From: an uncultured Ignavibacteriales bacterium
GTDB taxonomy: Bacteria > Zixibacteria > MSB-5A5 > GN15 > FEB-12
DNA length: 64,000 bases
NCBI GenBank assembly: GCA_964503315.1
Contig: CAZCZL010000007.1
Coordinates: forward strand, 12,327 to 76,326
Direction of reading: 5' to 3'
In this document: one piece after another, positions 20,016 to 59,021 of the stretch
Layout of the letters: each line of letters begins with the position of its first letter
Position numbering within the stretch: position 1 is the first letter of the stretch
Program-made: the position numbers and the translations under genes
The notes under the pieces: model-generated
Database searches by the model: none
Seen by the model: the letters and a program-made list of their open reading frames with translations, nothing else
Told to the model about the DNA's origin: nothing

Positions 20016-20050
20016 AAACAAAAACCTGACTCCGCCGCAGCGAAGTCAGG
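20016..20050 (-). terminator. intrinsic terminator closing an unannotated minus-strand unit
   Basis: CCTGACTTCG..CGGAGTCAGG-TTTTTGTTT on minus strand. Confidence 0.75.
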
Positions 20051-20414: not shown

Positions 20415-20443
20415 AAAAAACGAATCGTGTGAGGTTCGATTCG
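20415..20443 (-). terminator. intrinsic terminator downstream of terminase gene
   Basis: CGAATCG-loop-CGATTCG-TTTTTT on minus strand. Confidence 0.65.
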
Positions 20444-20514
20444 ATACGGTGAAGGGATGATTATCTACGGCTAAGATATGGAGTGCATGGGTCGGTGTCA
20501 AGGGGAAAGAGGGA

Positions 20515-21858
20515 CTATGCGCGCCCTACCCTCGGCATTACGATCGCCGCCGCCCGTGTCGCCAGAGGTCGCAACGCCAGCGCCAACGCCATCAACGCAT
20601 CGCACTCGTTATTGTCATCCCACCGCGCTGAGCGAAGTTCATCCTCCAATGACCACGTTCTCCCCGGGCCATCCGGCAACTCCCAGCGATCATAGGCGAC
20701 GAGACCACGGGCATGCATCAGCTCAACATTGGTGAGCAGTTCAGCTTTGTTCATCGGTGTGAAGATCACTCCCGTCGGTTTGACATCATCAAGCTGTTGA
20801 AGTATCACATCCCCAAGTCCGGTCGCGTCGATAAGCAGTTCACCCGGAAACTCCATCTGTCGTTTCCGTATCTTCTCAAGTATCACCGGCCAGTCGAACA
20901 TCCTGAGCCGTTCCAGTTTCACAATTCGCGCGATACCTTCGTGAACACAGATCGTGATCCCAACTGTCGCTGTTCTCTTCCGCGCCAGATCCCAACCGGA
21001 AATAAAGCGACACCCCGTGAGATCATCTATCGGCGGAAGCATGCGCATCCGCGCGAGCGCGGCATCGATATCCCTCCCCGGGATCACCTCACCGCCGGAA
21101 TCGACAAATTCGCCAAGAATGTTCTGCTTCAGTCGCGTCTCGGAAAAGTACCGCACCCGTTCGTCCAGATACTCCCGCGAGATATGTTCATTATCCCGGC
21201 TGTCGCCGCGCTGGCAATAGCCCGGCCGTTTCCCGTCGACAATCTCATTCGCCCGACGGTACAGCCAGTTTTTGCCGTTCGGTGTCGAAACGAGATCAAG
21301 CGTCCCTTCGCGATCCGCAAGGCGCATCATCAACACCTCTTCCACGACATGTTCCGCGTTCGGGTCAAATGCGACTTCGTCATAGACGACAAAGTCATAA
21401 TCATTTCCGAGCAGATAATCCCCGCGGTTCTGGGTAGTGCGCGCTTCAATCGTCGCGCCATTCGTCAGCGTGATCTGGAGAAACGGCGTATGCAGGACCG
21501 ATTGAACCAGCGGCTTCATCCATGCCGAACGATATATCAGCCGTAAGGCATGCAGCAAAACCAGGTCCGCCTGATTTTGCGTAATAGAGACCACCGCCGC
21601 TCGGTAACGATCGGCGCTGTCGTACTTCCGGTCTCGATATCTATAGACCGCGTGGTGCAGAAGTTTCACCGCCGAGACAAACGACTTCCCCCAGCGATTC
21701 CCCGTCACCAGGATATTCTCCCGCCTGACCGAGTTCGCGAGCCATTGCCGCTGGCCATCGTGCAGTGAGATGCCGAGTATCTTCGTCGCGAACGATGGAA
21801 TATCCAGCACGCCGTCGAGCCAGACATTTTCTACCGGCGGCACTATATCATCCGGCAT
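20515..21858 (-). CDS. phage terminase large subunit (Terminase_6-like)
   Basis: Walker A 'GNRWGKS', Walker B 'FVVYDE', motif III 'STPNG', nuclease 'GWDLA', 'DATGLGD', 'CDALMALALA'. Confidence 0.9.
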   Translation of the reverse strand: MPDDIVPPVENVWLDGVLDIPSFATKILGISLHDGQRQWLANSVRRENILVTGNRWGKSFVSAVKLLHHAVYRYRDRKYDSADRYRAAVVSITQNQADLVLLHALRLIYRSAWMKPLVQSVLHTPFLQITLTNGATIEARTTQNRGDYLLGNDYDFVVYDEVAFDPNAEHVVEEVLMMRLADREGTLDLVSTPNGKNWLYRRANEIVDGKRPGYCQRGDSRDNEHISREYLDERVRYFSETRLKQNILGEFVDSGGEVIPGRDIDAALARMRMLPPIDDLTGCRFISGWDLARKRTATVGITICVHEGIARIVKLERLRMFDWPVILEKIRKRQMEFPGELLIDATGLGDVILQQLDDVKPTGVIFTPMNKAELLTNVELMHARGLVAYDRWELPDGPGRTWSLEDELRSARWDDNNECDALMALALALRPLATRAAAIVMPRVGRA

Positions 21859-23075
21859 GCGCGCTCGCGGGCAACTGATTCATCGATCAGACCGGCCTGG
21901 AACAGCCTGAGCAGATTGTCCACCCGCTTCGACTCTATCCCGATAGAATCCGCCGCCTGATAGGCGAAGGTATTGTCGAATTCAAACCGGCACCTGACAT
22001 CAAATCCACCCAGCGCCAGTTCGATATTTCCGATCCATTCAAGAAAGTCCGCCACCTGTGCCTGCACCGAGCGGACCTGACGCATCACGATATCGAATTT
22101 GAAATCCGACCAGGTCGTAGTGGCGCCGTATGAGTAGCCGAGCAGGAATGGCGCGAGGTTAGTTCCGGCGCAGATATCCTCGATCAGCGCGCGATGATTG
22201 ATAAACCAGCTATTGGTCACTCCGCGCGCGGTCTCCGGCCCGATATAATCGATCGTCACATTATCCCAGGTGACCGGGTTGTCATCCACTTCGCACTCGC
22301 GGATCATCGAGACCGTCGCGTCGAAATACTTATTTATCCGGTCAGTGTACGCGTTGTCCGATTCCCCGGCCATCCGCTCCGGCGGCGTTATCTTGACATG
22401 CAGGCGGCTGTAACCGGCGTTATGTTGCGCGCGCTGAAGATCCCGTATCAACTGCTGTTCGATAAAAGAAATGAACGGCACCGGATGGAGGATCGACCTC
22501 CCGAACGGCTCGGATATCGTATTCGCCAACGCGACATACCGGAAATCCGCGCGATCCAGCGGAAGCGTGATCTCGCCGTTGTCATACACAAGTTGAGGTC
22601 CGCGCGCGGTTTGTTCGCCACGGAGATGTACCGCGTCGACCGGCACAAATTGATCGACTCCGGTTGCATCAGGAAGCATGGTCACAAATCCGCCAAATAT
22701 GCCGTCTCGATAAAGCGAAGTGAAAAGATCGGGAAGCATCGTAGCGACGCCGAGGTGGTGACAGTTTGGCATCCTCATGATTCGTTCGGACAGACGGTTG
22801 AGTCGCGCGAGTGGGGCGCTGATTGATTCTTTCTCCGGGATTTCCTGACCATCGGACGAAAGAATCAAAAATCTCCCCGGCGCGGCGGAGAGGCGTGCCC
22901 AGGTCCAGACACAGGCGGAGATTATCGGTATCTGATCGCACAGGAAGCGGTAGAGCATTGTGCGATAGCGCCCCGAGTGCAAGTCATTGGGGGAGAGGGC
23001 GAGCATCCGGTTCAGTTGTTTGGTGGTGAGGGAAGGATTTTCTTTGACGGTGGTGGCAAGACGGGCTGTGGTCAT
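21843..23075 (-). CDS. phage portal protein
   Basis: ~410 aa; 'PIISACVWTWARL', 'PFGRSIL', 'IEDICAGTNLAPFLLG', 'GLIDE' end; overlaps terL start; AAAGGAG RBS before ATG 23075. Confidence 0.8.
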   Translation of the reverse strand: MTTARLATTVKENPSLTTKQLNRMLALSPNDLHSGRYRTMLYRFLCDQIPIISACVWTWARLSAAPGRFLILSSDGQEIPEKESISAPLARLNRLSERIMRMPNCHHLGVATMLPDLFTSLYRDGIFGGFVTMLPDATGVDQFVPVDAVHLRGEQTARGPQLVYDNGEITLPLDRADFRYVALANTISEPFGRSILHPVPFISFIEQQLIRDLQRAQHNAGYSRLHVKITPPERMAGESDNAYTDRINKYFDATVSMIRECEVDDNPVTWDNVTIDYIGPETARGVTNSWFINHRALIEDICAGTNLAPFLLGYSYGATTTWSDFKFDIVMRQVRSVQAQVADFLEWIGNIELALGGFDVRCRFEFDNTFAYQAADSIGIESKRVDNLLRLFQAGLIDESVARERACRMI

Positions 23076-23269
23076 GGTGCAGACTCCTTTCATATAGGGG
23101 CCGGCACTTGGGAGAACTGACAAATGTAATACAGAGTTGAATAATGGAGATGTACACTAGGAATTGTGTCTGAGCGTTTACTCGCGTGTTTATCCCCATC
23201 TTCTCATCGTTGACTTCTCCGCCCCACTATTCTATATTCCCGTTACAACCCTCAAACGGACACAACACT

Positions 23270-47485: not shown

Positions 47486-47806
47486 TTATTTTTCAGATTT
47501 GAACTTTCTCGCTACTGCGGCCGCGCCCAAACCGATCCCCATCAGCACCAGCGTACCTGGTTCGGGAGTCGGCGTTGGATTCGGATTCGGAGTTGGACCA
47601 GGCTTGTGGCCTCGACCGTCCTTATCCGTCTTATCATACTTTTTGCCATGGTTCGGCTTGGGATCTTTCCCTTTGCCTTCACCCGGCTTGGTCGGAACCG
47701 TGATACCGTAGACATCCGCGAACGTGATCGACATGACGATCAGGAACGCGAGCGCCGCGACGATCCACTTTCCGATGCCGTTTTCGTTCCGATGATAGAC
47801 CTTCAT
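47486..47806 (-). CDS. small PEP-CTERM sorting-domain protein
   Basis: C-terminal 'PTPEPGTLVLMGIGLGAAAVARKFK'. Confidence 0.9.
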   Translation of the reverse strand: MKVYHRNENGIGKWIVAALAFLIVMSITFADVYGITVPTKPGEGKGKDPKPNHGKKYDKTDKDGRGHKPGPTPNPNPTPTPEPGTLVLMGIGLGAAAVARKFKSEK

Positions 47807-47861
47807 ACCTATGCCCTTTGCCGAAGACTATCTGTTATAAATTCGTTCTGAACCCTATTAA

Positions 47862-47878
47862 AGCAAAGCCGGTGCCAA
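47862..47878 (-). promoter_or_regulatory. sigma54 (-24/-12) promoter of the PEP-CTERM gene
   Basis: Minus strand TTGGCACCGGCTTTGCT: GG-N10-GC spacing. Confidence 0.85.
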
Positions 47879-47975
47879 AGGCTGTCGAGGTCGAATCGAA
47901 TCGCCGTATCTTCGTGATATATAATGCGATAGGTAGCGCACCAAAAACCGAGACTATCCCCCCTGTTTAACACTA

Positions 47976-47991
47976 GTGCAATCCCTTGCAC
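47976..47991. promoter_or_regulatory. palindromic operator/enhancer candidate
   Basis: GTGCAA-TCCC-TTGCAC about 100 bp upstream of the sigma54 site. Confidence 0.5.
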
Positions 47992-48067
47992 AAATATAGA
48001 AGCGAACCATTAGCTCTTCTGAATTGGCTCCCTTTAGCAGAAGCAGTCGCTAAACTCAGGAGCTTGC

Positions 48068-49567
48068 ATGAAAAACTCCCGCGGGCGTATCATCGCCCAA
48101 CTTGATCTCAATTCACCCCTCCCCATCGCCGACCTGGTCCCGCTTATCAACCAGCGGATCAACCCACCCACCCCGGTCACGGAGGCTGATATCTATATCC
48201 GCGCCATGTTCATCCTCTCCGACCAGACCAACGCGTATGGCGGACGGTTCCCCTCCGATGAACACCCCCGCCTGGCCGATCTTCTGGTGGACTCACCCGT
48301 TCTGGTCGGACATCGACGTGACCTTCTTCCCATCGGTCGAACATTCCATGCCCTCTGCGTCACGCAGGATGGCCGCAACTGGGTCAAGAGCTATTTCTAT
48401 TGGCTGAAGTCCGCTGAAGGCGCGGAGACTCTGCGCGATAATATCGATGCCGGCATTTACAAAGAATGCTCTATCGGATTTGTCTACGGTCTCCCCGAAT
48501 GCTCCATCTGCGGCAAAGATATTCGAGTCTGCCCCCATGAGCCGATGCAGTCTTATGCCGTCAATGGTGAACCGACCGACTGCCATTTCAACTACCGCCA
48601 GATCGACCGTGTGCTCGAAACTTCCCTCGTCTACCGGGGCGCCATCCCCGACACCTCCATCACCCGCGACCTCGCCATCACCAAGGCATCCGGCGCCGAT
48701 GAACCGCTCCGTATCGACTCGCTGGATGACCTCCCGCCCGCCACTCGCTATCTCATCACGCCCCGGTACGAGGGAATCGATATTCGCTTGAAAAATCTGC
48801 CGCATGGATTCGTCGCCGCCCGTCTCACCGGCGAAGAAATACCATTACCACTCGACAACCTCACCGACTTGGAACTTGGATCCAGAGACCGTCTGGCGCG
48901 TCTGGTCGGCTACCGCGGACGTGAACGCTCCACCTCCGCGCAACTCGAACGCTACCTTTCCGGCGCCCATGCCGCGGTCAATCGCGCGACGCTGTTTCTC
49001 TATCCACTCTCAGAGCAGGAGACCGGCCTCCTGCTAAAACCGATAGAATCTCTGGACTGCCGCTTCATTCGTTCCCGCTTTGTGACGCGCCCGCAGATTC
49101 AGCAGGCGGTCGATGACCTCGCCACCCGCGAGGGAGTAGAGATACATCTGATCGACCAAACTCAGTCGAACGGGCGATTCCTCTATCAGCCACGCGAACA
49201 CAATGCTCAGCAGATCCCGATCCTTCGTCTCGCTCGCATGTCTCACTCCGATGACTGGCTCTTGGATATCAACACCGACCAGCCGAGGCAATTCATCATC
49301 CGCCAATTCGATATCGCGCGCTTCCGACATTCAGCCCGCTTTGTCGCCGACCAGATCCTTCCGCCCATGCGCATCCCCGTTGATCCCAAGATGCAACTCA
49401 GTTGGCGGTCCGCTAAACTGACTCAGCGTGACAACGCGCTTTCTCTCGAGGTAGGGGAGAGGCAGGGGGGAGTCCTACGAATTCAACCGATCCGGATCGA
49501 AGGGAAACCTCGCTACCTGTTCTACCGTGCGGACAGACCCGTCTCACGTTCCAAGGAGAATCTATGA
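48068..49567 (+). CDS. prohead (maturation) protease with C-terminal extension resembling a degenerate ATP-dependent ligase domain
   Basis: 'PVLVGH', 'NIDAGIYKECSIGF', 'CSICG..CPH', 'ETSLVYRGA'; C-half 'PRYEG', 'TREGVEI'; AGGAG RBS. Confidence 0.75.
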   Translation: MKNSRGRIIAQLDLNSPLPIADLVPLINQRINPPTPVTEADIYIRAMFILSDQTNAYGGRFPSDEHPRLADLLVDSPVLVGHRRDLLPIGRTFHALCVTQDGRNWVKSYFYWLKSAEGAETLRDNIDAGIYKECSIGFVYGLPECSICGKDIRVCPHEPMQSYAVNGEPTDCHFNYRQIDRVLETSLVYRGAIPDTSITRDLAITKASGADEPLRIDSLDDLPPATRYLITPRYEGIDIRLKNLPHGFVAARLTGEEIPLPLDNLTDLELGSRDRLARLVGYRGRERSTSAQLERYLSGAHAAVNRATLFLYPLSEQETGLLLKPIESLDCRFIRSRFVTRPQIQQAVDDLATREGVEIHLIDQTQSNGRFLYQPREHNAQQIPILRLARMSHSDDWLLDINTDQPRQFIIRQFDIARFRHSARFVADQILPPMRIPVDPKMQLSWRSAKLTQRDNALSLEVGERQGGVLRIQPIRIEGKPRYLFYRADRPVSRSKENL

Positions 49568-49917
49568 CCAGTCCTCCTCCCACCACGCGCCGCTCCGCCC
49601 GTCACCCGGCCGAGAATGGGCTCCTCCGCTTCAGCGGTCAATTGTTCAATCTGCTCATGATCGCGCTTTCCATCGCCGCCGCGTACTTCATGACGATCCA
49701 GTCAATCAAAGTTGAGCTGGCTGCCAAAGCTGAGTCCGCCTCGGTCGCGGCGCTCGACAAAAAACTGGGGGTTGTCGAGATCCTCCTCAAAGAGGGAGTC
49801 GTCAACAAAGAAGAATTCTACCGCTTCTCAACCTCCATCGACTCCCGCCTCGCCCGTATCGAATACCTCGTCTCTGACCCCACACAGGAGAGAACCCGTG
49901 CCCAACGACAACCGTAA
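49564..49917 (+). CDS. small protein with one TM helix and coiled coil
   Basis: TM 'LFNLLMIALSIAAAYFMTI'; ATGA overlap. Confidence 0.75.
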   Translation: MTSPPPTTRRSARHPAENGLLRFSGQLFNLLMIALSIAAAYFMTIQSIKVELAAKAESASVAALDKKLGVVEILLKEGVVNKEEFYRFSTSIDSRLARIEYLVSDPTQERTRAQRQP

Positions 49918-50323
49918 CAGTTTCGATCCCGATGAGGGAGCGCGCCTGGCCGACCAGCTCTGCTCCCGGGATCTCCCATCTATCGATTTCGACTCACTCG
50001 CCACCTGGCTCCGCGCCGCTGGCGAACATCTCCGGCAACTCACACACGAAAAAGAGAGCCATCATGCCTTTAAGCGGTCTGTGCAACAACTCGAGCATGA
50101 CCTGAATCTCCTCCGTGCTGATTACCGCGCGCGAATTGCCGGTCTGCTCAAAGCGATCGCCATCGCCGACAACTCCCGCGCCCGCCACGATGCCCTGGCT
50201 GAGATCATCAATTCACTCTCCACTATGTCCGCCGAAGAATTGATTGCCTGCTACCGCCGCACCTCCGCCATCTTCCGCGACCACTTCCCCAACACCCTCC
50301 CACCGTTGAAAGTGGGTCAATGA
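49898..50323 (+). CDS. helical protein, putative capsid scaffold
   Basis: AGGAG RBS + GTG 49898; coiled coil 'VQQLEHDLNLLRADYRARI'; position between protease and decoration/capsid genes. Confidence 0.55.
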   Translation: MPNDNRNSFDPDEGARLADQLCSRDLPSIDFDSLATWLRAAGEHLRQLTHEKESHHAFKRSVQQLEHDLNLLRADYRARIAGLLKAIAIADNSRARHDALAEIINSLSTMSAEELIACYRRTSAIFRDHFPNTLPPLKVGQ

Positions 50324-50329
50324 TCGCGT

Positions 50330-50512
50330 GGGCTTCGACTGCGCTCAGCCCGATTACATCTGCGCGGCAGACGTCCTCGTCTGCCTGTGAGACAGCTTGA
50401 TGTCTGTCATCGCGAGGTTTGCCGGCACTACTCGATCATCTCAACCGAACTCTCCGCGGCAAACCGTCGCGATCTCTACTGATCAATTGGGCTGAGCGTA
50501 GTCGAAGCCCAA
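50330..50512. repeat. composite REP mosaic, copy 1
   Basis: A(rc)-B-C-A arrangement; see findings. Confidence 0.9.
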
Positions 50513-50578
50513 ATTCGAACAACCCAATCACCACCGTACCCCACCATTTATGGTGGGCCATCACAAGGAAAATCCCCC

Positions 50579-51001
50579 ATGTCCATCCGCGACCACAATC
50601 TCGAATCCATCGCCCCCGTCTTCGCCTCCTTCAAGATCCACCAGACCGCCACCGTCGATGACCTCAAAGATCTCCACCTCGGCCAGCCCGTTATGCTGAC
50701 CGGTAACTCCGAGATCGGTCCCATCACCAACAGCGGCCAGCTTCTCGGCAAACTTATCGCGCTGACACTCACCGACAACGACAATGGCAAACGTGTCGCC
50801 ACTGTCCAGATCGGCGGTATCTGCCGCCTGGCCGTTTCCGCGACAGTGCCATCCATCGGCAATCGTGTCGTTGGCGGAACCGCCGGCACTGTGAAACAAG
50901 CACCGGTCCTCGCCGCCTATGACCCGGCCGGTGGCAATATCGCTCGCGGCACCGTCATCGACATCAACGGCACCACCGACTGCCTGATCCTGCTAAACTA
51001 G
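50579..51001 (+). CDS. capsid decoration/cement-like protein
   Basis: 140 aa, Gly-rich beta pattern 'GQPVML', 'ATVQIGG', 'G.+V.+'; immediately upstream of MCP. Confidence 0.7.
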   Translation: MSIRDHNLESIAPVFASFKIHQTATVDDLKDLHLGQPVMLTGNSEIGPITNSGQLLGKLIALTLTDNDNGKRVATVQIGGICRLAVSATVPSIGNRVVGGTAGTVKQAPVLAAYDPAGGNIARGTVIDINGTTDCLILLN

Positions 51002-51031
51002 CATTCCCGTCATCGCGAGCTTCGACAATTT

Positions 51032-51179
51032 GCGCGGCAGACGTCCTCGTCTGCCCGAACACAACGCAACACCTGTCATCGCGAGGTTTGCCTGCACTTC
51101 CCGAACATCTCAACCGAAATCTCCGCAGCAAACCGTCGCGATCCCTTGATCAATTGGGCTGAGCGTAGTCGAAGCCCAA
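51032..51179. repeat. composite REP mosaic, copy 2
   Basis: B-C-A arrangement. Confidence 0.9.
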
Positions 51180-51227
51180 TTTCGAACAACCCAAACCCAC
51201 ATCAACCTCCCTTCCCAAGGAACCCCC

Positions 51228-52322
51228 ATGGACTTCAACTCCTTCCTCTCTTCTGCCGCCCTGGCAAATCTCAATCGCGCCACTCATGAACCGACCAGCA
51301 ACCTCGACCTCACCCGCGCCGCGTCGCTCGATATCTCCCGCGACACCTATCTCGAAGCTGAATCCCGCGGCATGACTCTCTCCGAACTGCTCGAAACCGA
51401 TGAATACGATCCCTCTCCGGTCGGTGCGCCCATCGATGCTTTCGAGCGCCAGCTCGCCCTCGCCGGTGTCCGACTTGGCGGCAAACGCCCGACCACCGTC
51501 GAGCAGTTCTATCAGAAAGCTCCCGCGCTGATGCCCGAGTTCATGTTGCGTGAGATCAAGAAGGGACAGCAGATGCGTCCGGAACTGAGCCGCCTCATCG
51601 CTTCCTCCACCGTCATCAACTCCAACCGCTACACGCCGTTCTTCATCGATACGTCGAGCGACAAGAAATTCGCGCTCCGTCCCGTTGGCGAAGGCGCCGA
51701 GATCCCGCAACTGATCGTCACCGAACAGACGCACGCCATCACCGTCGCGGATTTCGGCCTGACCCTCAAAACTTCCTACCGTTCGCTCCGCCACCGCTCG
51801 ACCGCGCAATTCCGCGTTTTGCTCTGGTACATCGGCTTTAAGATGCAAACCGACAAGATCGGGATGATCGTCAATACGCTCATCAATGGCGATGGCAACT
51901 CCAATTCCGCGCGCGTCGTCAATGCCGCCGCCACCGGCACGCTAGCCTACGGCGACTTGGTCAGCCTCTGGTCACAGTTCGCGCCCTTCGAAATGACCAC
52001 CCTTGTCTGCCACATCGACAAACTGAAAACGATTCTCAACCTGAGCGAATTCAAAGATCCGCTCATCGGCTACCGCTTCCAGCAACAAGGCGATCTGATC
52101 TCGCCGCTCGGCTCGACTCTCATCCGCTCCGATGAAGTCCCCACCGATTATATCATCGGACTCGACAACCGCTTCGCCATCGAAGAGGTCATCGCGCAGC
52201 CGCTGATGATCGAATATGACAAGGTGATCGAGCAGCGGTTCGAGGAAGCTGTTATTTCCGAAGCCGTCTCGTACGCCAAGGTCGTCAAAGAAGCCGCCGT
52301 CATCCTCGACACCGTCTTCTAA
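51228..52322 (+). CDS. HK97-fold major capsid protein
   Basis: 364 aa; 'DAFERQL', E-loop 'PVGEGAEIP', 'LINGDGN', 'IIGLD', 'EYDKVI'; AAGGA RBS; context. Confidence 0.85.
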   Translation: MDFNSFLSSAALANLNRATHEPTSNLDLTRAASLDISRDTYLEAESRGMTLSELLETDEYDPSPVGAPIDAFERQLALAGVRLGGKRPTTVEQFYQKAPALMPEFMLREIKKGQQMRPELSRLIASSTVINSNRYTPFFIDTSSDKKFALRPVGEGAEIPQLIVTEQTHAITVADFGLTLKTSYRSLRHRSTAQFRVLLWYIGFKMQTDKIGMIVNTLINGDGNSNSARVVNAAATGTLAYGDLVSLWSQFAPFEMTTLVCHIDKLKTILNLSEFKDPLIGYRFQQQGDLISPLGSTLIRSDEVPTDYIIGLDNRFAIEEVIAQPLMIEYDKVIEQRFEEAVISEAVSYAKVVKEAAVILDTVF

Positions 52323-52336
52323 CACGCGCTTGATGT

Positions 52337-52450
52337 GCGCGGCAGACGTCCTCGTCTGCCCGATACTATAAGTCATACCTGTCATCGCGAGGCTTGCCGG
52401 CACCACACGATCATCTCAACGCGAATCTCACCGGCAAGCCGTCGCGATCC
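52337..52450. repeat. composite REP mosaic, copy 3
   Basis: B-C arrangement. Confidence 0.9.
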
Positions 52451-52475
52451 CAAACTCACAACAGAAGCACCCCCT

Positions 52476-53891
52476 ATGCTCACCAAACTCTCCGACACCG
52501 CCGCCCTCTATCCTCTCGGCCATGCCACCGGCCAACGGCTCCTGCGCCTGCCATTCGGACCCTATGCCGGACGGCTCGTCGCGCTTTATCTCGATGTCGC
52601 CGGTCACCTCGCGATGCGATGGCGCAACTCCGGCGCCTCCACCTGGTCAACTCCCATCACTATCGCCACCGATATCGCCGACCTTTCGTATGACTGCTGC
52701 ATCGCCGACGATTGCTCCATCCATATCGCCTTTCTCGATTCCGATGGCGTCACGCTCAAATCCCGCGCGTTATCTTACGCAGACGGCACATGGACCATCG
52801 GCGATCCGGTCACCGTCTACAACGCGCACTCAACCCTCAACCCCTCACTCGTTATCGACTCCACCGGCACACTCTGGCTCGCGTTCAATCGTCTGGACAA
52901 CGGCAACTGGTTCATTCAACTGAAATCTTCGACCGATTCCGGCGCCACCTGGGGTTCCGGACCGACCGACCCAGGGGAGACGCTCTCAGCCGGCGCGTCA
53001 CAACTCACCGCCAAGCTGATCGCCACCGCCGAAACACTCCACGCTATTATCGCCTACGGCTCCACCAAGATCGTTTCTCGCGCCATGCCGTACTCAACCG
53101 CGATCTGGTCTGATGAATACATCATCGCCTCCGGTCTCTCCGGATTCAGTCATCAAATTGATGCTGCCCTTGGTCCCAATGGCCGGATCGCTGTCGCTTA
53201 CAATGACTCCGCCTTTCGCGTACGTGAATTCGATGGCCTCACCTGGGGCGCCGCGGCCACGCTCGAAGCAACCGTCCAGCAATCGCCGCAAGTCGTCTTC
53301 CGCAACGGCATCCCGACCATCCTCTGGCTGCGCGGATTCAACTATGAGCAACGTCGCCTCATGTTTTCCTCCCGAAGATCCGGCGACTGGTCAACTCCCG
53401 CGCCACTCGACCCGCGTGCCGATCTCTTTGATTCCGTCATCCTCTACAATCACGGCGCGGGAACCTACATCGACAGAACTGCCGCCGCGTCTGACCTGAC
53501 CGAGTCCGATATTTCACACCCCGCCTCCGGCGCGCTCTTCAAAAATCCCGGAGATGCTCTTTATGTAGGCATGAACTCCCGCTTCCGCTATCTGCACGCC
53601 GTACTCTCACCAGTGGGGAGCGGTGGAACCGTCACTTTCAGCTTCTGGAATGGCTTCCTTTGGGTGCCGTTCACACCGAGTAGCGGCCAATCTAACTTCG
53701 ACTCAACCCCCGCGCGCATCGCTCTTTGGCCTGATTATCAGTCTATTCCGCTTGACTGGCAGAAACGGATCGTCACTAATCAGATCCGCTACTGGATCAA
53801 GATCGAAGTCAACTCTGGATTCACCACCGGCCCGATCGGCTCGCAGATTTCGGCTGTCTCTGAGCTGCAAACGTTCATCGTCCGGAGGTAG
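52476..53891 (+). CDS. BNR/Asp-box beta-propeller protein with C-terminal beta-sandwich (putative virion accessory)
   Basis: 'SSTDSGATW' Asp-box; 'WS.P' blade ends; C-terminal 'RYWIKI'. Confidence 0.7.
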   Translation: MLTKLSDTAALYPLGHATGQRLLRLPFGPYAGRLVALYLDVAGHLAMRWRNSGASTWSTPITIATDIADLSYDCCIADDCSIHIAFLDSDGVTLKSRALSYADGTWTIGDPVTVYNAHSTLNPSLVIDSTGTLWLAFNRLDNGNWFIQLKSSTDSGATWGSGPTDPGETLSAGASQLTAKLIATAETLHAIIAYGSTKIVSRAMPYSTAIWSDEYIIASGLSGFSHQIDAALGPNGRIAVAYNDSAFRVREFDGLTWGAAATLEATVQQSPQVVFRNGIPTILWLRGFNYEQRRLMFSSRRSGDWSTPAPLDPRADLFDSVILYNHGAGTYIDRTAAASDLTESDISHPASGALFKNPGDALYVGMNSRFRYLHAVLSPVGSGGTVTFSFWNGFLWVPFTPSSGQSNFDSTPARIALWPDYQSIPLDWQKRIVTNQIRYWIKIEVNSGFTTGPIGSQISAVSELQTFIVRR

Positions 53892-53895
53892 CACT

Positions 53896-54708
53896 ATGTC
53901 ATACGTCACCCTCGACCATCTCCGTCCCTACCTGATCGCCAACGCCCCGACCGCCGAAACCGTCACCGATCAGCCCTTCCGCTTTTCCGGGATCGACTGG
54001 CAACGATTCCATGGCGGCGCAGTCGACCCATTGTCATTGCGGGTAAAATCCCGCCGCGCCAACATCCTCACACGTCTGCAACTCACGCTCACTGATTCTC
54101 CCGTTCAACTCTCCAACTCACCGATTGTCGCCGAGTCGCTCTTGGTCGCCTCCAATTCATCACTCGGCCGTATCTATCAGCCGAATGTCGATTACACGTT
54201 CGACAGCCATAACAACTCACTCGCCATCAAACCCGGCGGAGATCTTTCGTCCGACACCTCGGTTACCGTTTGGTTCGAGCCGTTCACGCTCTACCACGAA
54301 GGCTCCGACTACTCCCTCAATGCCGACAGGGGAGAGCTTCGACGGCTCCCGTCCGGCTCCATCGCGGATTCCGAATCCGTTCTGCTCGACTTCACGCCGC
54401 TGTACGCGCCCTATTCCGATGACCTCCTCAACGCCGCCATCGCCGAAGCCAATGGTCTCATCGAACGCGAGATCGACCCCGACAAACAGTTTGGCGCCGA
54501 TCCGACACTGAATGCCGCCGCACGGTCTCTCGCGCTTGAGATCGTCTGTCGCGCCGCCGCCGCGCGTGAGCTTGCCTCCGGTCGCTCACTCGATAAGATC
54601 GCCCTCGCCTGGGAATCTCTCGCCGTCACTCACGCCGCGCGCGCCGAAAGACTCCTCAAATCCTTCCGCCCGCCTCTGTTGTCACCCAAATCCCCAACCG
54701 TCAGATAG
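53896..54708 (+). CDS. putative head-completion/adaptor protein with inserted Ig-like repeats
   Basis: 'MSYVTLDHL' start and 'LLNAAIAEANGLIE...AARSLALEIV' end typical of gp6/gp15-like adaptors; internal 'Y.....DY.+' repeats. Confidence 0.6.
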   Translation: MSYVTLDHLRPYLIANAPTAETVTDQPFRFSGIDWQRFHGGAVDPLSLRVKSRRANILTRLQLTLTDSPVQLSNSPIVAESLLVASNSSLGRIYQPNVDYTFDSHNNSLAIKPGGDLSSDTSVTVWFEPFTLYHEGSDYSLNADRGELRRLPSGSIADSESVLLDFTPLYAPYSDDLLNAAIAEANGLIEREIDPDKQFGADPTLNAAARSLALEIVCRAAAARELASGRSLDKIALAWESLAVTHAARAERLLKSFRPPLLSPKSPTVR

Positions 54709-54718
54709 GAATCCACCC

Positions 54719-55090
54719 ATGTCCTCGCTTGAACGTGTTACCTCTCACCGATGTTGGATCATCCATGACTTCTCTGTCTGGGGGAGACCAACCCTCGGTG
54801 AACTCGATCTGCTTCTCTATGAATCACCCACCGCCACCGGTGAGATCTTTTTCAGCACTGCCGATATCGGCGACTCCGCGCAAAAAGTCGAATTCTCCCA
54901 ACTGACCGACCATCGCGGCAACCCATTGCCGTCGATCATCTCCGCGCCGCATATCATCATACGCCCGCGCTCTGCGGACTCCGTCTTTCTCATCGGCCAC
55001 GAAACTAACTCCGCATTTTCCATCGCGCACGATGCCGACCTCGATTCCCCCGTTCTCGTCCACCTCTTCATCACCGAAATGGGGGAGTAG
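54719..55090 (+). CDS. hypothetical protein in capsid operon
   Basis: 123 aa; AGGA RBS; tight spacing. Confidence 0.7.
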   Translation: MSSLERVTSHRCWIIHDFSVWGRPTLGELDLLLYESPTATGEIFFSTADIGDSAQKVEFSQLTDHRGNPLPSIISAPHIIIRPRSADSVFLIGHETNSAFSIAHDADLDSPVLVHLFITEMGE

Positions 55091-55091
55091 C

Positions 55092-55355
55092 ATGGCTGGT
55101 ACCTCTTTCAAAGTCGTCAACCCTCTGGTCAACCTCGACAAGCTCGACCTGCTGATTGACATTTATCTCACCGGTTTGATTGACCGCTCCGAGGATGTGA
55201 AACTCTGCGATTTCGTCCGGCTCGTCGATCTCCGCCACCGCATCGACCCGGTCGTGTCTGATAAAGCAGATCCGATGCATCAAGTCAACTCTGCCCGCGA
55301 GCGTCTCCTTCCCATGAACGGCGTCACCGAAAACGAGGGAGACCCAGACCAATGA
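55092..55355 (+). CDS. hypothetical protein in capsid operon
   Basis: 87 aa; GGGGGAG RBS. Confidence 0.7.
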   Translation: MAGTSFKVVNPLVNLDKLDLLIDIYLTGLIDRSEDVKLCDFVRLVDLRHRIDPVVSDKADPMHQVNSARERLLPMNGVTENEGDPDQ

Positions 55356-56512
55356 CCCGCCTCTTGCTTGTTATCATTCTGACTACATCTTCCATATTCG
55401 CGCAGACGACCATTCACCGTGACTCTCGCACATCTGGGAATAGCCTCATCGCCGCGACCTTTACACTGCGAGATTCTCTCCATGCGACTCTGGGCGATTT
55501 GCGGGACCAAACATTCAAACCGACACTTTCTCTCTACGATTCCGCCGGAGGCGCGATAACGATATTGCTCGCCGATTCACTCCGACCCTACTCCCCCAAA
55601 GAGTGCCGCGTCAGTTCCTCCGATGCCCTCTGGTTCCCATCAGACAACTCCACCCGCCACCTGCTCTATCTTCGCGATGACCACTCCCTCGAGTGGGAGA
55701 TCATCCTCGATTCCCCAACGACCATCACCGCCTATCGCTTCCCGGTCAAACTGCAGAACTTGATTGCGTTTTATCAGCCGGAACTGTCCAAAGAAGAACT
55801 CGCCGAAGGCCACTCCCGCCCCGACTCTATCATTGGCTCCTACGCCATCTATAGAAAAACAGGGGAGAAGGTGCTGCACATCCCACGCCCCCGCGCGTTC
55901 GATGCCGATGGTTCTTCCATCTGGTGCGATCTGCGCATCGATTCATTTTTCACCATCACCGTCCCCTCTGATTTCCTCGCCAAGTCCCGCTTTCCGATCC
56001 GCATTGACCCGTCATTTGGCTACAGTAACGCCGGTGCTTCTTCGCTCGCAGTCGCGTCCATCCGATGTTACGCCAATGGCAACGCCAACTACCGCTATAC
56101 CGCGGGCGCCAACCAACGGGTCGACTCCTTCCGTGTTCATCTCCGCACGCTCACCGGCAATAGTGACACTGTCGATGTCGCGCTCTACTCGTGCAACAAC
56201 GGCATCCAGAACCGCCTCGATACCGCCGTCTGGGTCTACACCGCCAGTGCCACTGCGACATGGGTTAGCTCAGGACCGATCGCTCAGATGCTGACAAATG
56301 GCACAACCTACACACTAGCGACAAACCACCACGAAGGAACCCCGCGAATCTCCTACGACGTCGGCTATTCCGGCGACCATAGCTTTGACAGTGTCAACGA
56401 CCTTCCCGTCACCTGGACCGAGGATGGCGTCGGCACCTACCTCATCTCCATGCAAGCCTGGTACTCAACCATCACCACATCATCCACCCCCACCCGCCGC
56501 CGAAGACTCTGA
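55352..56512 (+). CDS. signal-peptide protein resembling phage spike/fibre and Rhs N-terminal domains
   Basis: Signal 'MTRLLLVIILTTSSIFA'; 'LEWEIILDS', 'PRAFDADG', 'FPIRIDPSFG'; ends 'PTRRRRL'. Confidence 0.65.
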   Translation: MTRLLLVIILTTSSIFAQTTIHRDSRTSGNSLIAATFTLRDSLHATLGDLRDQTFKPTLSLYDSAGGAITILLADSLRPYSPKECRVSSSDALWFPSDNSTRHLLYLRDDHSLEWEIILDSPTTITAYRFPVKLQNLIAFYQPELSKEELAEGHSRPDSIIGSYAIYRKTGEKVLHIPRPRAFDADGSSIWCDLRIDSFFTITVPSDFLAKSRFPIRIDPSFGYSNAGASSLAVASIRCYANGNANYRYTAGANQRVDSFRVHLRTLTGNSDTVDVALYSCNNGIQNRLDTAVWVYTASATATWVSSGPIAQMLTNGTTYTLATNHHEGTPRISYDVGYSGDHSFDSVNDLPVTWTEDGVGTYLISMQAWYSTITTSSTPTRRRRL

Positions 56513-56536
56513 CTTCTGAACTCATCTGGAGTGACC

Positions 56537-58003
56537 ATGAAATATCTTCTGACTATTCTCTCGCTGATTCTCATCTTCCCGTGCGCTCACGCCACCCCCA
56601 TCGTCACCAATAACACCGGCGCCGGAAATGCCGAGGACTCACTTACCCTCACCTTTTTTGTCACCGACACAGTTGGCAATTTCGCGCTCGCCGATTCGTT
56701 TTTCGTGATGATCTTTTCTCCCACCGGCGATTCGCTTTTCGCCGCAAGTTACACCGCCGCGTCCACCGAGATCCGCGCCATTACCCTCGGCACGTCGGGG
56801 CGCAAAGGCTACCGATGGACCAAAGAGGTTGCCGATATTGATGGCTCCTCGCCTCGCTCCGGCACCTACTCCGGTATTTTGATCGCCGTTGATACGCTCG
56901 ATGGTCCCAGCTCCGCCCGCCTCGACCAGGGGTTCGCGTTCTCCTTCATCCTCGAGCCAACCCTCGCTGACCGCGCGAAGATCGGCGATACCTGTGCCGA
57001 CAACAAAGCGATCAACCTCGCGCAGATCTCCGGCGACCAGACCGCGGCCGACAATCTCGAAACCATGCTCGATAACACCGGCGGCCAGACTTTGCGTCTC
57101 GGTCGACTCGTCGTCGATGGTTCCTACGAAGGCGCCGGCTCCGTTTTCATCCGCAATACCAATGCCGCGGGCATGGCGATGCAGATCCTCGGCACCGGTA
57201 CCGGAATTGATATCACCGGCTCCAACTCTGCCGGACTCTCCATCGCGGGAGGTCAGCAGGATATCTACCTCCACGGCTCCGGCAAACTGCACGGCGGCAT
57301 TTCGGAATCATTGCTGGTTGATATGAGCAGCTTGAATGCGTCGTTGGATAATGACAGCTCGCTCGTCACCTTTCTCCGCGCGGGCATCGGGGGAGAGGGG
57401 GGAGGTGGTAATTGCGCCGGTACCGGCGCCTATTCCGTCATGCTGACCGTGATCGACACCACCACCGACCAGGTTATTCCCGGCGCGCAAATCACTGTCC
57501 GCAATCTCGACCAGTCCGCGTTGCTCGCGCTTGTTGAAACCGACAACCTCGGTCGCGCCACCGTTCATCTCGATCCCGGCCCCGCCGTTCTCATCCCGAG
57601 TGCCCCCAATTACATTTTCGCCTCAACCGACACCATTGCGGTCGCTGGCTCCATCTCCGCCACTCTCTCCGGCTATCATTTCGACCCGGGCCAGCCTTCC
57701 GCTCCGAACCTCTGCCGCCTTTACGGATTTCTATACGCAGTCAGTGGCCTACCCGAATCCGGGGCCAAGGTCTCCGCGTCCATCCCATCCGGCGTTGTCC
57801 GTCACAACTCACTGGTCATCTCACCATTCACGACTTCCACTACGACAGATGCCAACGGCTACTTCTACCTCGACCTGATTCCGTCTGATCTGTTGAATCC
57901 TTCCGGCACGAAGTACGAGATTACTATCACCCGCGCTGATGGCACCATCTTGCGTCAACGTCTCAAAATCCCCACCACCCCCACTTGGCAACTTGAATGG
58001 TAA
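56537..58003 (+). CDS. signal-peptide protein with two C-terminal carboxypeptidase-regulatory-like Ig domains
   Basis: Signal 'MKYLLTILSLILIFPCAHA'; 'ISGDQTAADNLE'; 'VIPGAQITVRN', 'TTTDANGYFYLDL'. Confidence 0.7.
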   Translation: MKYLLTILSLILIFPCAHATPIVTNNTGAGNAEDSLTLTFFVTDTVGNFALADSFFVMIFSPTGDSLFAASYTAASTEIRAITLGTSGRKGYRWTKEVADIDGSSPRSGTYSGILIAVDTLDGPSSARLDQGFAFSFILEPTLADRAKIGDTCADNKAINLAQISGDQTAADNLETMLDNTGGQTLRLGRLVVDGSYEGAGSVFIRNTNAAGMAMQILGTGTGIDITGSNSAGLSIAGGQQDIYLHGSGKLHGGISESLLVDMSSLNASLDNDSSLVTFLRAGIGGEGGGGNCAGTGAYSVMLTVIDTTTDQVIPGAQITVRNLDQSALLALVETDNLGRATVHLDPGPAVLIPSAPNYIFASTDTIAVAGSISATLSGYHFDPGQPSAPNLCRLYGFLYAVSGLPESGAKVSASIPSGVVRHNSLVISPFTTSTTTDANGYFYLDLIPSDLLNPSGTKYEITITRADGTILRQRLKIPTTPTWQLEW

Positions 58004-58079
58004 GTGATGGAATATTGATCTCTCTGAGCGTCACTCGTCTCGCCTACTTAACTGAGGCTTTCGGACAACTGCCACCGCA

Positions 58080-58325
58080 TCATTCCGCGCAGGCGGGAAT
58101 CCAGCTTCTTCCTGTCTGCTCTCTGACTCTGATGTGCGAGGTAGGCATCCCCGTCTGCCCCAAGTTGCACGACGTACTTGAGCGGCAGACGTCCCCGTCT
58201 GTCCGAATCCAAATAACCCTGTCATCGCGAGGTTTGCCTGTACTGCCCAAACATCTCAAATTGACTCTTTCTGGCAAACCGTCGCGATCCCTTGACCAAT
58301 TGGGCTGAGCGTAGTCGAAGCCCAA
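58080..58325. repeat. composite REP mosaic, copy 4, preceded by a CATTCCGCGCAGGCGGGAATCC palindrome
   Basis: B 58180, C 58219, A 58300. Confidence 0.9.
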
Positions 58326-58495
58326 ATACGAACAAGTTACGGCAGGTCCACCGTCTCCGCGAGGGTAAGCCTAGCGCTCGCCCAACTTCACAAATCCATT
58401 CTTGCATCTCAATTGCGCGAACGCGAGACCTGATGGCCTATCCTCGATTCTTAAGCAACCCATTCCCTTCCAACTTTCAACCAACAGGAAATACC

Positions 58496-59004: not shown

Positions 59005-59021
59005 ATCAGCTACTCATACTC

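Follow-up and report, generated by a model that had tools for sequence, protein, structure and literature searches.

A portal and large terminase gene pair as the probable packaging half of a domesticated head gene cluster in Zixibacteria

Results

In the window, by which we mean the whole stretch of 64,000 nucleotides analyzed here, two adjoining genes on the minus strand encode a portal protein and a large terminase (TerL). We think it probable that this pair is the packaging half of a head and packaging gene cluster that was domesticated anciently, has been inherited vertically among Zixibacteria, resembles a gene transfer agent (GTA), and happens to be split in this genome. A broader reading, to which we give slightly less than even weight, is that this is a phylum-wide, independently domesticated capsid and packaging system, either a new GTA family or a capsid-based organelle for DNA export or delivery, with a portal–TerL motor, no small terminase (TerS), and links to PEP-CTERM and TPR genes, kept throughout the history of the phylum. 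Our search of the literature found no earlier report that connects Zixibacteria to GTAs, terminases, or capsids in such a context.

The portal and terminase genes

The longest open reading frame of the portal gene runs from a TTG at 23123 to 21843 on the minus strand, and a first-pass annotation of the window had taken the gene to reach that far. From the sequence, we place the start instead at the ATG at 23075, since this codon has a Shine-Dalgarno-like AAAGGAG (23084..23090, minus strand, as read from the sequence) 8 nt on its 5′ side, and since it agrees with the public gene call and with close homologs, both of 410 amino acids. The gene thus occupies 21843..23075 (−), encodes 410 amino acids, and ends with a TAG at 21845..21843. 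A profile search matches the product to PHROG 3753, ‘portal protein’ (E = 1e-15); a Pfam scan returned no match, and a profile search against PDB sequences returned nothing usable. When the AF2 model of the protein (pLDDT 70.8) is compared with the PDB by Foldseek, the top 50 matches are phage or GTA portals only (probability 1.0, TM 0.4–0.5), including those of HK97, phi812, G20c, T4, lambda, and RcGTA (6toa, 6te8). The portal call has thus stood up to structure prediction, and on this model the product is predicted to have the portal fold, with its wing, stem, clip, and crown.

TerL (20515..21858, −) is a protein of 447 amino acids with an N-terminal ATPase and a C-terminal RNase H-like nuclease. 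It scores 41.9 bits against the Pfam family Terminase_6N (PF03237, Terminase_6/T4-like; cutoff 22) and matches PHROG_2 at 1.3e-30. Its motifs comprise a Walker A (G53-N-R-W-G-K-S59), a Walker B (FVVYDE, with D160-E161), a coupling motif (S191-T-P193), and three acidic nuclease residues, D290 (GWDLA), D344 (DATG), and D420 (CDAL). Judged by its profile and motif matches, TerL belongs to the Terminase_6/T4-like family, with the motifs of an ASCE ATPase and of an RNase H/RuvC-like nuclease. The first-pass annotation had described these motifs as intact and had named an alignment as the place where that claim might fail; in the alignment of 29 sequences, which are 59–90% identical, the Walker A, Walker B, STP, and three aspartates are invariant, and no catalytic residue is lost. 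The Walker motifs and STP also align to the solved ATPase of P74-26/G20c TerL, and D290 and D344 align to GADFG and vaDTWG of the corresponding nuclease, in an alignment that stops short of the third aspartate. The best cultured-phage matches are to Thermus phage Riverbug and then to P74-26/P23-45/G20c, at no more than 28% identity. A stop codon falls within 3 of 80 TerL matches, which could reflect pseudogenes or sequencing errors.

The portal gene lies upstream of TerL, the reverse of the usual order. This arrangement, noted already in the first pass, is clade-wide: in 79 of the 80 related loci the portal gene immediately precedes TerL. The reported overlap of the two genes is likewise confirmed. 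It spans 16 nt (21843..21858, −), with the TerL ATG at 21858 falling within the last codons of the portal gene, and it suggests translational coupling. At least 12 related loci repeat the spacing of −16, and in 41 of 61 the two genes are spaced within −16..+20 nt.

As the first pass had claimed, no TerS gene is adjacent to the pair. There is no room for one upstream of the portal gene, because an intergenic region of just 110 nt separates it from a divergent TPR gene, and we found no conserved open reading frame in the 0.6 kb downstream of TerL. A tblastn search with the TerS from the nearest phage relative detected no homolog in either the window or the 80 loci, and no TerS emerged when the small and distal cluster proteins, together with an upstream protein of 193 amino acids, were scanned against PHROG and Pfam. 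It is possible that a divergent TerS exists among the unannotated small cluster proteins. The TPR gene and the 193-aa gene are both conserved upstream of the pair in relatives; the 193-aa protein has no function match in PHROG and Pfam scans. An Rfam scan of 17–26 kb found no RNA family.

Downstream of TerL lies a hairpin, CGAATCG-N9-CGATTCG-T6 (20415..20443, −), with a 7 bp stem and a 9-nt loop, which had been proposed as a terminator closing the unit. The hairpin is present, but it folds only weakly (−7 kcal/mol; z = −0.41 relative to shuffled sequences), a terminator scan missed it, and it is not conserved in the closest relatives, L003 and L004. We therefore regard it as a possible terminator, weak and statistically undistinctive.

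The head gene cluster

The pair was at first described as a stand-alone packaging operon. This is accurate locally, but the matching head genes occur in the same window, at 47486..58798, where a protease-like gene, a decoration-like gene, and the gene for a major capsid protein (MCP) are accompanied by at least six others. That the pair belongs to this larger cluster had been overlooked.

At the start of the head module is a gene for a small PEP-CTERM protein (47486..47806, −; Pfam PEP-CTERM, 4.9e-6). In the canonical cluster this gene falls between TerL and the protease-like gene, and it holds that position in most related loci. The next gene encodes p499 (48068..49567, +), which matches phrog_16951 at 5.5e-11. 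Its N-terminal ~200 amino acids are protease-like with a Cys-rich insert, and are fused to a C-terminal domain; a homolog lies directly upstream of the MCP gene in a gut phage. Comparison with HK97 gp4 by hhalign gives a weak alignment (E = 0.039), whose aligned part contains the invariant H82 and S135 of p499, and in this weak alignment the matching gp4 positions are what we take to be the catalytic His and Ser. The N-terminal part of p499 is thus a probable prohead protease.

Three smaller genes separate p499 from the MCP gene. The first (49564..49917, +) encodes 117 amino acids, is conserved in 45 loci, and has a sequence suggestive of a transmembrane helix and a coiled coil. The second encodes a helical protein of ~140 amino acids (49898..50323, +), whose start is uncertain within the open reading frame 49712..50323. 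Its homologs in relatives have 137–144 residues, PHROG and Pfam scans gave no family match, and its position and composition make it a candidate scaffolding protein. The third, immediately upstream of the MCP gene, encodes the decoration-like p140 (50579..51001, +), which matches phrog_4588, ‘virion structural protein’, at 1e-6 and has a median identity of 70% across loci. The MCP itself (51228..52322, +; 364 aa) matches phrog_3922, ‘major head protein’, at 1.7e-62. It is 33% identical to MCPs of uncultured gut phages, and its median identity across Zixibacteria loci is 69%.

Beyond the MCP gene lies p471 (52476..53891, +), a conserved gene whose product shows weak BNR/sialidase-like beta-propeller signals; a role in a tail, spike, or nozzle would be a guess. 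The virion-associated p270 (53896..54708, +) has an AF2 model of pLDDT 86.5, which shows a helix at the N terminus, then a beta-sandwich (Ig-like) domain, and a three-helix bundle at the C terminus. Foldseek against the PDB and BFVD gave weak domain-level matches to phage tail, neck, and receptor-binding proteins, from which we made no assignment, and a homolog sits beside a tailspike-like gene in a 55-kb phage contig (L094). We consider p270 a candidate neck or tail component; a relationship to the HK97 adaptor gp6 was rejected, as hhalign showed none. The conserved distal genes p123, p386, p490, and p168 follow (54719..58798, +), with CarboxypepD_reg/Ig-like domains in p490. Profile searches against PDB sequences returned nothing usable for p471, p270, p123, or p499. 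Among the cluster proteins there is no PHROG or Pfam match to a tail tube, tape-measure, or baseplate, and we could assign none of them a tail, lysis, or TerS function; p471, p270, p123, p386, and p490 are without annotation. The 3′ end of the cluster in the window adjoins DUF7451(−)-lipA-RR/HD.

Distribution and gene order among relatives

Relatives occur in 247 species-representative genomes, of which 80 species-level genomes were listed; it is to these that our locus counts out of 80 refer. More than 500 homologs are found at 55–66% identity, on Mb-scale contigs and complete chromosomes among others, and the whole clade forms one cluster at 50% identity. Most of the 80 listed genomes are labeled Zixibacteria or GN15. 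The labels are inconsistent, with many ‘uncultured Ignavibacteriales’ and single cases of Thermoplasmata, Calditrichota, and Deferrimicrobium, and so the taxonomic range of the cluster is not rigorously fixed.

The canonical cluster extends over ~12–13 kb, in the order portal, TerL, PEP-CTERM (reverse), protease-like, small proteins, decoration-like, MCP, and then six or so conserved proteins. The MCP module comes directly after portal–TerL in 35 of 43 informative loci. In the lineage of the window, portal–TerL lies ~24 kb from the head genes and in the opposite orientation, with both halves kept, and this split arrangement is common to relatives at 74–93% identity. Likewise, the distal genes are elsewhere in the genome in CP070824 and in the 2.26-Mb contig of L055. 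The halves stand between 24 kb and 270 kb apart in several genomes, both intact, and the sequence conservation of the pair is equal in split and unsplit genomes.

Selection and inheritance

For both portal and TerL, dN/dS is 0.06–0.07 against relatives that are 90–93% identical, and 0.06–0.13 against a relative at 76%; individually, the values are 0.064–0.070 for the portal gene and 0.073 for TerL. The genes are intact in ~77 of the 80 species-level genomes, protein lengths are near constant across loci, and identity falls in the narrow range of 55–66% across 77 species. The earlier proposal that the motor is still under selection is thus strongly supported, by a dN/dS of ~0.07, by the invariant catalytic residues, and by this near-universal integrity. 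Compared with a sister genome, the dS of the pair is 0.50–0.75, which is comparable to that of flanking host genes (0.53 for gyrB).

Where checked, the flanks consist of housekeeping genes (gyrB, leuS, pnp, MM-CoA mutase); these are cellular genes, and part of the neighborhood is shared between deep lineages. In CP070824, whose TerL is 63% and whose lipA is 60% identical to that of the window, DUF7451(−)-lipA-RR/HD abuts the 3′ end of the cluster as well, and in L007, L008, L030, L032, and L057 the cluster is likewise followed by DUF7451. No integrase, repressor, replication, or lysis gene was found in the annotated flanks (both window loci, L001, L002, L084, L101, and L102), and the window contains no tRNA. 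On the basis of synteny, parity of dS, and parity of identity with a few flanking genes, the cluster appears to be inherited vertically in Zixibacteria.

Two further signals were considered and rejected. A strong negative GC skew at 48–60 kb might have indicated foreign origin, but throughout the window the skew at third positions tracks the strand of the genes, and the neighboring host genes lipA, RR/HD, and biotin carboxylase show similar values. Contigs of RNA-labeled runs cover both loci and derive in part from a strain that is 90–95% identical. Because their coverage is low and even, and includes the flanks, it could be DNA carry-over and is uninformative on expression.

Discussion

We propose the following working model. 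A rearrangement in the lineage of the window would have detached portal–TerL from the head genes. The MCP, protease, and scaffold-like proteins would assemble a procapsid on the portal ring; TerL would dock on the portal, its ATPase pumping double-stranded DNA into the head and its RNase H-like nuclease cutting it; and the downstream conserved proteins would then seal the portal, perhaps also building a short neck or tail. The packaged DNA would most likely be chromosomal DNA of the host, because the element lacks replication, integration, and recognizable TerS functions, which would make the product a GTA-like particle. Our results show what the genes are, that their motifs are intact, that they are under purifying selection, that their order is kept across the clade, and that their neighbors are cellular; the formation of particles, the identity of the packaged DNA, and its transfer to other cells are steps that we infer. 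It is reasonable to suppose that the particle packages DNA rather than forming an empty compartment, because a complete portal, a TerL with ATPase and nuclease, and the capsid module are all retained. An encapsulin nanocompartment, which has an HK97-fold shell and cargo-loading peptides but neither portal nor terminase, does not fit the conservation of the portal and a catalytically intact TerL together with the MCP. The first-pass annotation had further argued that the loss of a linked TerS points to non-specific headful packaging as in GTAs. This argument is not supported as made: the absence of TerS is no hallmark of GTAs, since RcGTA encodes a TerS next to its TerL.

The conservation and selection described above would be expected equally if the cluster were a domesticated capsid machine serving some role other than random transfer, such as the packaging of one particular locus or element, DNA export for biofilm or eDNA, cargo delivery, or anti-phage defense in which incoming phages are hijacked or decoyed. 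The PEP-CTERM protein (an exosortase-sorted surface protein) inside the cluster and the TPR and 193-aa genes upstream are atypical of known GTAs and fit such a role, as does the lack of any clear tail among our findings. However, we see no sign of a specific cargo, TerL has retained the full nuclease typical of cutting concatemeric or chromosomal DNA, and the flanks annotated with Pfam and PHROGs contain no defense-system partner. We therefore consider this the less likely reading, although one with a fair minority of the weight.

Could the pair instead be the packaging module of active or inducible temperate phages of Zixibacteria that integrate at a preferred site, so that its wide spread reflects frequent infection and not domestication? 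Every recognizable gene is indeed a phage structural or packaging gene, IMG/VR lists one divergent copy (L088) among its viral contigs, and the conserved TPR and 193-aa genes could be regulators. Yet in the annotated flanks of the window loci and of relatives we found none of the integrase and att sites, repressor, replication, and lysis modules of a functional prophage, a candidate we rejected on that account; the window has no tRNA; the halves remain intact at separations of 24–270 kb; dS equals that of flanking host genes, identity is narrow across the 77 species, and lengths are near-invariant; and IMG/VR holds no relative at ≥55% identity. Repeated infection is thus an improbable explanation.

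Because the pair is separated from the head genes, one might also imagine that portal and TerL work without a capsid in the lineage of the window, perhaps as a DNA translocase or nuclease associated with the membrane. The separation, and with it a separate transcription unit, is common to the whole sub-clade at ≥74% identity. Against this, the head genes are intact in the same window and the pair is equally conserved in split and unsplit genomes; we know of no precedent for such a function, and we judge it more doubtful still. Lastly, a decaying cryptic prophage remnant without present function, as the local isolation of the pair from other phage genes, the lack of TerS, and the weak terminator might suggest, is effectively refuted by a dN/dS of ~0.07, by invariant catalytic residues, by reading frames intact in ~77 of 80 genomes at up to 45% protein divergence, and by the retained head genes.

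An anciently domesticated, GTA-like cluster accordingly stays our preferred explanation. The GTA families that are known to have been domesticated independently are few, and all come from cultured organisms. Here, what would be a vertically inherited head and packaging cluster is conserved in ~250 species-level genomes of an uncultured and widespread phylum (sediments, groundwater, sludge). If confirmed, it would be a further, ancient instance of phage domestication, new to science, would suggest capsid-mediated DNA exchange in the FCB group, and would offer a natural experiment on a packaging motor that has lost a recognizable TerS and its linkage to the capsid genes. The cluster also matters in practice: its loci bear the annotation ‘hypothetical’ or ‘terminase family protein’, and IMG/VR counts at least one of them among its viral contigs, so that provirus calls in Zixibacteria MAGs can come out too high.

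Comparison with known systems

The best solved relatives of the Zixibacteria TerL are those of Thermus phages P74-26, P23-45, and G20c (ATPase and nuclease domains solved as 4zni, 5tge, and 5m1f), at 23–28% identity. These are enzymes of lytic phages that work with a TerS. The Zixibacteria TerL has a Leu at the P74-26 position that is Arg in one and Ala in the other of the structures 4zni and 4znj, which is presumably the trans-acting arginine finger, R139; near that Leu, R140 and R145 are invariant in the Zixibacteria protein.

Three uncultured phages, namely the contig L087, the 55-kb phage L094, and MT835508, share with Zixibacteria the families of TerL, portal (phrog_3753), MCP (phrog_3922), protease-like protein, and p270. 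L087, whose TerL is 39% identical, encodes a CI-like repressor, Exc, and Rep_O, with TerS directly upstream of TerL. L094 (TerL 29%, portal 30%, p270-like protein 28%) places TerL before the portal and encodes large tailspike-like proteins. The MCP of MT835508 is 33% identical to that of Zixibacteria. In contrast to L087 and L094, the Zixibacteria cluster is without the CI-like repressor, Rep_O, TerS, and tailspike-like proteins, and its order is portal–TerL.

The known GTAs (the RcGTA type of Alphaproteobacteria, BaGTA, VSH-1, Dd1, and VTA) differ from the Zixibacteria cluster in several respects. Beyond the generic families of portal, TerL, and HK97-type head proteins there is no sequence relationship, even though the Zixibacteria portal model does match the RcGTA portal in structure. 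RcGTA has the order TerS–TerL–portal as against portal–TerL. Unlike GTAs, the Zixibacteria cluster has no recognizable TerS, tail tube, tape measure, or lysis genes, and a PEP-CTERM gene is embedded in it; its host is an uncultured phylum of the FCB group. GTA particles carry random pieces of host DNA, too short to encode the particle itself, into other cells; in Zixibacteria, the production of such particles and random packaging would be predictions. What the two have in common is that phage-like structural and packaging genes lie in the chromosome without replication, integration, or lysogeny modules. In Zixibacteria, vertical inheritance and purifying selection are indicated by a dN/dS of ~0.07, a dS like that of the host flanks, occurrence in 247 genomes, and a conserved 3′ flank. 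Like GTAs, the Zixibacteria cluster combines clade-wide conservation, purifying selection, and host-like composition, and like them it can be split over several loci.

The portal and large terminase genes

The minus-strand gene at 21858..20515 encodes a large terminase (TerL), with matches to Pfam Terminase_6N (41.9 bits, against a cutoff of 22) and to PHROG_2 (1.3e-30). In an alignment of 29 sequences, 59–90% identical to this TerL, we find that Walker A (T52-GNRWGKS59), Walker B (D160-E161), S191-T192-P193 and the acidic residues D290 (GWDLA), D344 (DATG) and D420 (CDAL) are all invariant; the catalytic motifs are thus intact, as the first-pass annotation had held. The profile of this alignment matches the ATPase domain of Thermus phage P74-26 TerL (4zni/4znj, E about 1e-6) and also the P74-26/G20c nuclease domains (5tge, 5m1f), and its GKS, DE, STP, GWDLA and DATG motifs align with the corresponding motifs of those solved domains.

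The open reading frame upstream of TerL extends at most from TTG 23123 to 21843 on the minus strand, and the portal gene had been taken to begin at that TTG. We place its start at ATG 23075 instead (23075..21843, minus), because this codon is preceded, on our reading of the sequence, by AAAGGAG at eight nucleotides, and because the resulting 410 aa equal the length of the closest portal homologs and of the public gene call. The frame matches PHROG 3753, ‘portal protein’ (E 1e-15), and no Pfam family. When an AlphaFold2 model of the protein (36 homologs in the alignment; pLDDT 70.8) was compared with the PDB by Foldseek, the top 50 matches were all portals, with probability 1.0 and TM 0.4–0.5, among them those of HK97, phi812, G20c, T4, lambda, P74-26 and the Rhodobacter gene transfer agent (GTA). 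The portal assignment, which was to be given up if structure prediction failed it, therefore survives.

TerL begins at ATG 21858, within the portal gene, and the two genes share 16 nt up to the end of the portal's TAG stop (21845..21843), exactly the overlap first described. This overlap is not special to the window: among the loci, at least 12 have a spacing of -16 nt from portal stop to TerL start, about 8 have one of -4 nt and about 15 have one of +1 to +8 nt. Since close spacings recur among related loci, tight coupling of the two genes is a family trait.

Downstream of TerL, the hairpin CGAATCG-N9-CGATTCG and its T6 run are present (20443..20415, minus), but their reading as the terminator that closes the unit is doubtful: the fold, at -7 kcal/mol, is no better than that of shuffled sequence (z -0.41), the terminator scan did not report it, and neither of the two closest relatives conserves it. 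About 460 nt past the TerL stop, beyond a non-conserved 67-aa ORF, a far stronger terminator-like hairpin (14 pairs, then a T-rich tail; 20022-20053, minus) could be the true end of the transcription unit.

We likewise detect no small terminase (TerS) gene beside the pair. The gap upstream of the portal is 110 nt and borders a divergent TPR gene, the 0.6 kb 3' of TerL contain only short, unconserved ORFs, and none of the proteins neighbouring the pair, nor any cluster protein, matches a TerS in PHROG or Pfam. An Rfam scan of the 17-26 kb stretch found no RNA family.

A head-gene locus in the same window

In relatives, what comes after the portal and TerL genes is a PEP-CTERM gene on the reverse strand, then a protein of 437–510 aa and a run of conserved genes. 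The pair had been called stand-alone, but tblastn places all of these post-TerL genes within the window, at 47486..58798 in plus-strand orientation. The locus opens with the PEP-CTERM protein (47806..47486, minus) and continues on the plus strand with p499 (proteins are named by length; 48068..49567, matching phrog_16951), two small proteins (49564..50323), a decoration-like ‘virion structural protein’, p140 (50579..51001, phrog_4588), and the major capsid protein, MCP (51228..52322, phrog_3922, 1.7e-62); p471, p270, p123, p386, p490 and p168 follow the MCP up to 58798.

A gut phage encodes, just before its MCP, a homolog of the p499 N-terminal domain. Alignment of p499 with the HK97 protease gp4 by hhalign is weak (E 0.039), and sets the invariant H82 and S135 against what we take to be the catalytic His65 and Ser114. 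Inside the stretch that aligns to the HK97-type prohead protease core sits an invariant Cys-rich insert (C134, C145, C148, C155, H157), and p499 would accordingly be an unusual protease variant with about 300 further residues fused to it. Among the distal proteins, p471 gives weak BNR/sialidase-like signals, and the confident model of p270 (pLDDT 86.5) resembles tail, neck and receptor-binding proteins only weakly and at domain level. The small PEP-CTERM (exosortase-sorted) protein, which in the canonical cluster lies between TerL and the protease-like gene, keeps this position across dozens of loci at roughly 30–40% identity (e.g. L002:11403-11744, in one such relative); it is an odd companion of a phage-derived module.

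Distribution and synteny

Homologs of TerL number more than 500 at 55–66% identity, and those that are named at all are labelled Zixibacteria or GN15, on contigs that include some of 1.2–3.4 Mb. When one genome per GTDB species was scanned, 247 had a relative, which is a count of carriers and not a share of the Zixibacteria species in the collection, and the best 80 of these loci were compared. The portal is directly upstream of TerL in 79 of these best 80, the remaining one being cut by a contig end, so that the unusual gene order is upheld in relatives; TerL is full-length in 77. Where enough downstream DNA was available (43 loci), the MCP module comes right after TerL in 35 and is split from it in 8. 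Median identity to the window over the 80 loci is 56% for the portal, 60% for TerL, 69% for the MCP, 70% for p140 and 33–43% for the others. Protein lengths hardly vary: 364–368 aa for the MCP (save one 346-aa call), 269–272 aa for p270 (one truncated call excepted) and 122–125 aa for p123.

The window shares its split arrangement with relatives at 74–93% identity (L003, L004, L101, L102). Further split genomes retain the distal genes at another place: CP070824, a distant relative's chromosome, has p270..p168 at 1.71 Mb and portal-TerL-p499 at 1.98 Mb, and the split locus L055 also has p270 on its 2.26-Mb contig.

The organism is found in sludge and wastewater metagenomes, and public annotation calls the cluster genes ‘hypothetical protein’ or ‘terminase family protein’. 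Genome labels of the carriers (L003–L082) are inconsistent: Zixibacteria/GN15, many ‘uncultured Ignavibacteriales’, and single records of a Thermoplasmata archaeon, Calditrichota and Deferrimicrobium. The two closest relatives, L003 and L004, have TerL 90–93% identical to the window's and yet bear different phylum-level labels, which means that some of the labels must be wrong. One assembly, CAZHDS01, carries two portal-TerL copies on different contigs (L073 and L077), which could reflect strain heterogeneity or bin contamination instead of true duplication.

Chromosomal context and selection

The flanks of both loci are cellular. Around portal-TerL we find gyrB, DUF2807, TPR, CYTH, a sigma factor and a CAAX protease; the head locus is preceded by genes for a BlaI-like repressor and for methylmalonyl-CoA mutase, and followed by genes for a DUF7451/dockerin protein, for lipoyl synthase and for an RR-HD regulator. 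No tRNA gene occurs in the 64-kb window, and Pfam and PHROG scans of flanking proteins revealed no integrase. The 3' end of the cluster adjoins DUF7451(-)-lipA-RR/HD in the window and in CP070824 alike, with identities of 63% for TerL, 60% for lipA and 56% for RR/HD; such a conserved junction, with host-like identities despite this divergence, is expected from vertical inheritance. DUF7451 also comes after the cluster in five further loci (L007, L008, L030, L032, L057).

The block adjoining TerL (18615-19064, 19234-19563, 19569-19922 and 17819-18505, all minus) encodes a 149-aa protein, a small hydrophobic membrane-like protein, a 117-aa protein and DUF2807. The first has several CxxC motifs and is 98% identical in L004 (dN/dS 0.015). 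L052, a distant genome, has this block on the portal side of a contiguous cluster, and the arrangement suggests an old neighbourhood with a local inversion in the window's lineage. In about 50 loci a 500-aa TPR protein and a 193-aa protein are encoded divergently upstream of the portal (e.g. L002:6403-8555, minus), the latter with 50–56% identity across loci and no family match; they may be regulators or ancestral neighbours. Both are absent from the window, where a 341-aa TPR gene (23186-24211) stands instead.

GC skew is strongly negative (-0.2 to -0.27) over the head cluster (48000-60000). We rejected this as a sign of foreign origin: third-position skew tracks gene strand throughout the window and host neighbours are similar, so the skew looks like strand asymmetry combined with all-plus-strand genes.

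We computed dN/dS by the Nei-Gojobori method against the closest genomes. Values for portal and TerL are 0.070 and 0.073 against L003 (93% identity), 0.064 and 0.073 against L004 (90–93%), and 0.126 and 0.063 against L005 (76–78%), which indicates strong purifying selection and bears out the proposal that the packaging genes are still under selection. Against L004, the portal has a dS of 0.52 and TerL one of 0.75, in the range of the flanking gyrB (0.53), TPR gene (0.51) and DUF2807 (0.85); the pair has therefore diverged along with its chromosomal surroundings. RNA-labelled runs yielded no usable expression signal.

Interpretation

Gene identity, intact catalytic residues, purifying selection and clade-wide synteny, together with cellular, partly conserved flanks, the absence of mobility and replication genes and persistence after the split, fit an anciently domesticated phage head and packaging module that is GTA-like in its genomic behaviour. 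Capsids would then assemble on the portal, TerL would load them with DNA, presumably host DNA, and cut it, and the distal genes may close the portal or make a short tail.

It is somewhat attractive to suppose that a domesticated capsid has some function other than generalised transfer, such as specific cargo, DNA export or defence, given the PEP-CTERM gene embedded in the cluster and the 500-aa TPR and 193-aa genes beside the portal of so many loci, though not of the window. Several observations disfavour an active temperate phage family: lysogeny and replication genes are missing, the loci are split, dS is on a par with that of host genes, the chromosomal junction is conserved, and the cluster is absent from viral collections (at ≥55% identity, IMG/VR has no relative). 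The dN/dS values and the intactness of the genes refute a decaying remnant.

The genomic pattern is clear and broad, and judged from sequence it is that of a domesticated phage module of GTA-like kind, unusual in its gene order and lacking any recognisable TerS or tail. Full-text searches returned no papers tying Zixibacteria to GTAs, terminases, capsids or prophages in this sense.

Comparison with phages and GTAs

The entire Zixibacteria TerL clade forms one 50%-identity cluster, and the next full-length relatives are 36–47% identical. The best cultured phages reach at most 28%, with Thermus phage Riverbug first, followed by P23-45, P74-26 and G20c at about 24%. Two of the 36–47% relatives, L086 and L088, have the portal-TerL order of Zixibacteria, and L088 has the same cluster as well. 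The latter (IMGVR_UViG_3300027896_005586; TerL 47%, MCP 59%) is a divergent chromosomal copy that IMG/VR lists as a viral contig; surveys of metagenome-assembled genomes may score such loci as proviruses.

It had been proposed that loss of a linked TerS fits headful packaging as in GTAs. This is not established: the Rhodobacter GTA, whose portal is among our structural matches, retains TerS beside TerL. The sole hint on packaging strategy comes from the nearest phage relative, L087 (P0249; TerL 39%), which has a genuine phage context of CI-like repressor, Exc and Rep_O, and in which an HTH-bearing TerS, a weak Sf6_terminase match, lies directly upstream of TerL and overlaps it; neither the window nor any of the 80 loci has a homolog of this TerS. 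In the 55-kb L094 (IMGVR_UViG_3300031920_000406), TerL precedes a phrog_3753 portal, large tailspike-like proteins are encoded, and a p270 homolog follows one of 778 aa; it is likely a true phage that shares the portal, TerL and p270 families. The contrast with these phage relatives indicates that the portal-before-TerL order and the missing TerS are derived in the chromosomal clade, and L094 might be used as an outgroup when the ancestor of this cluster is reconstructed for Zixibacteria.
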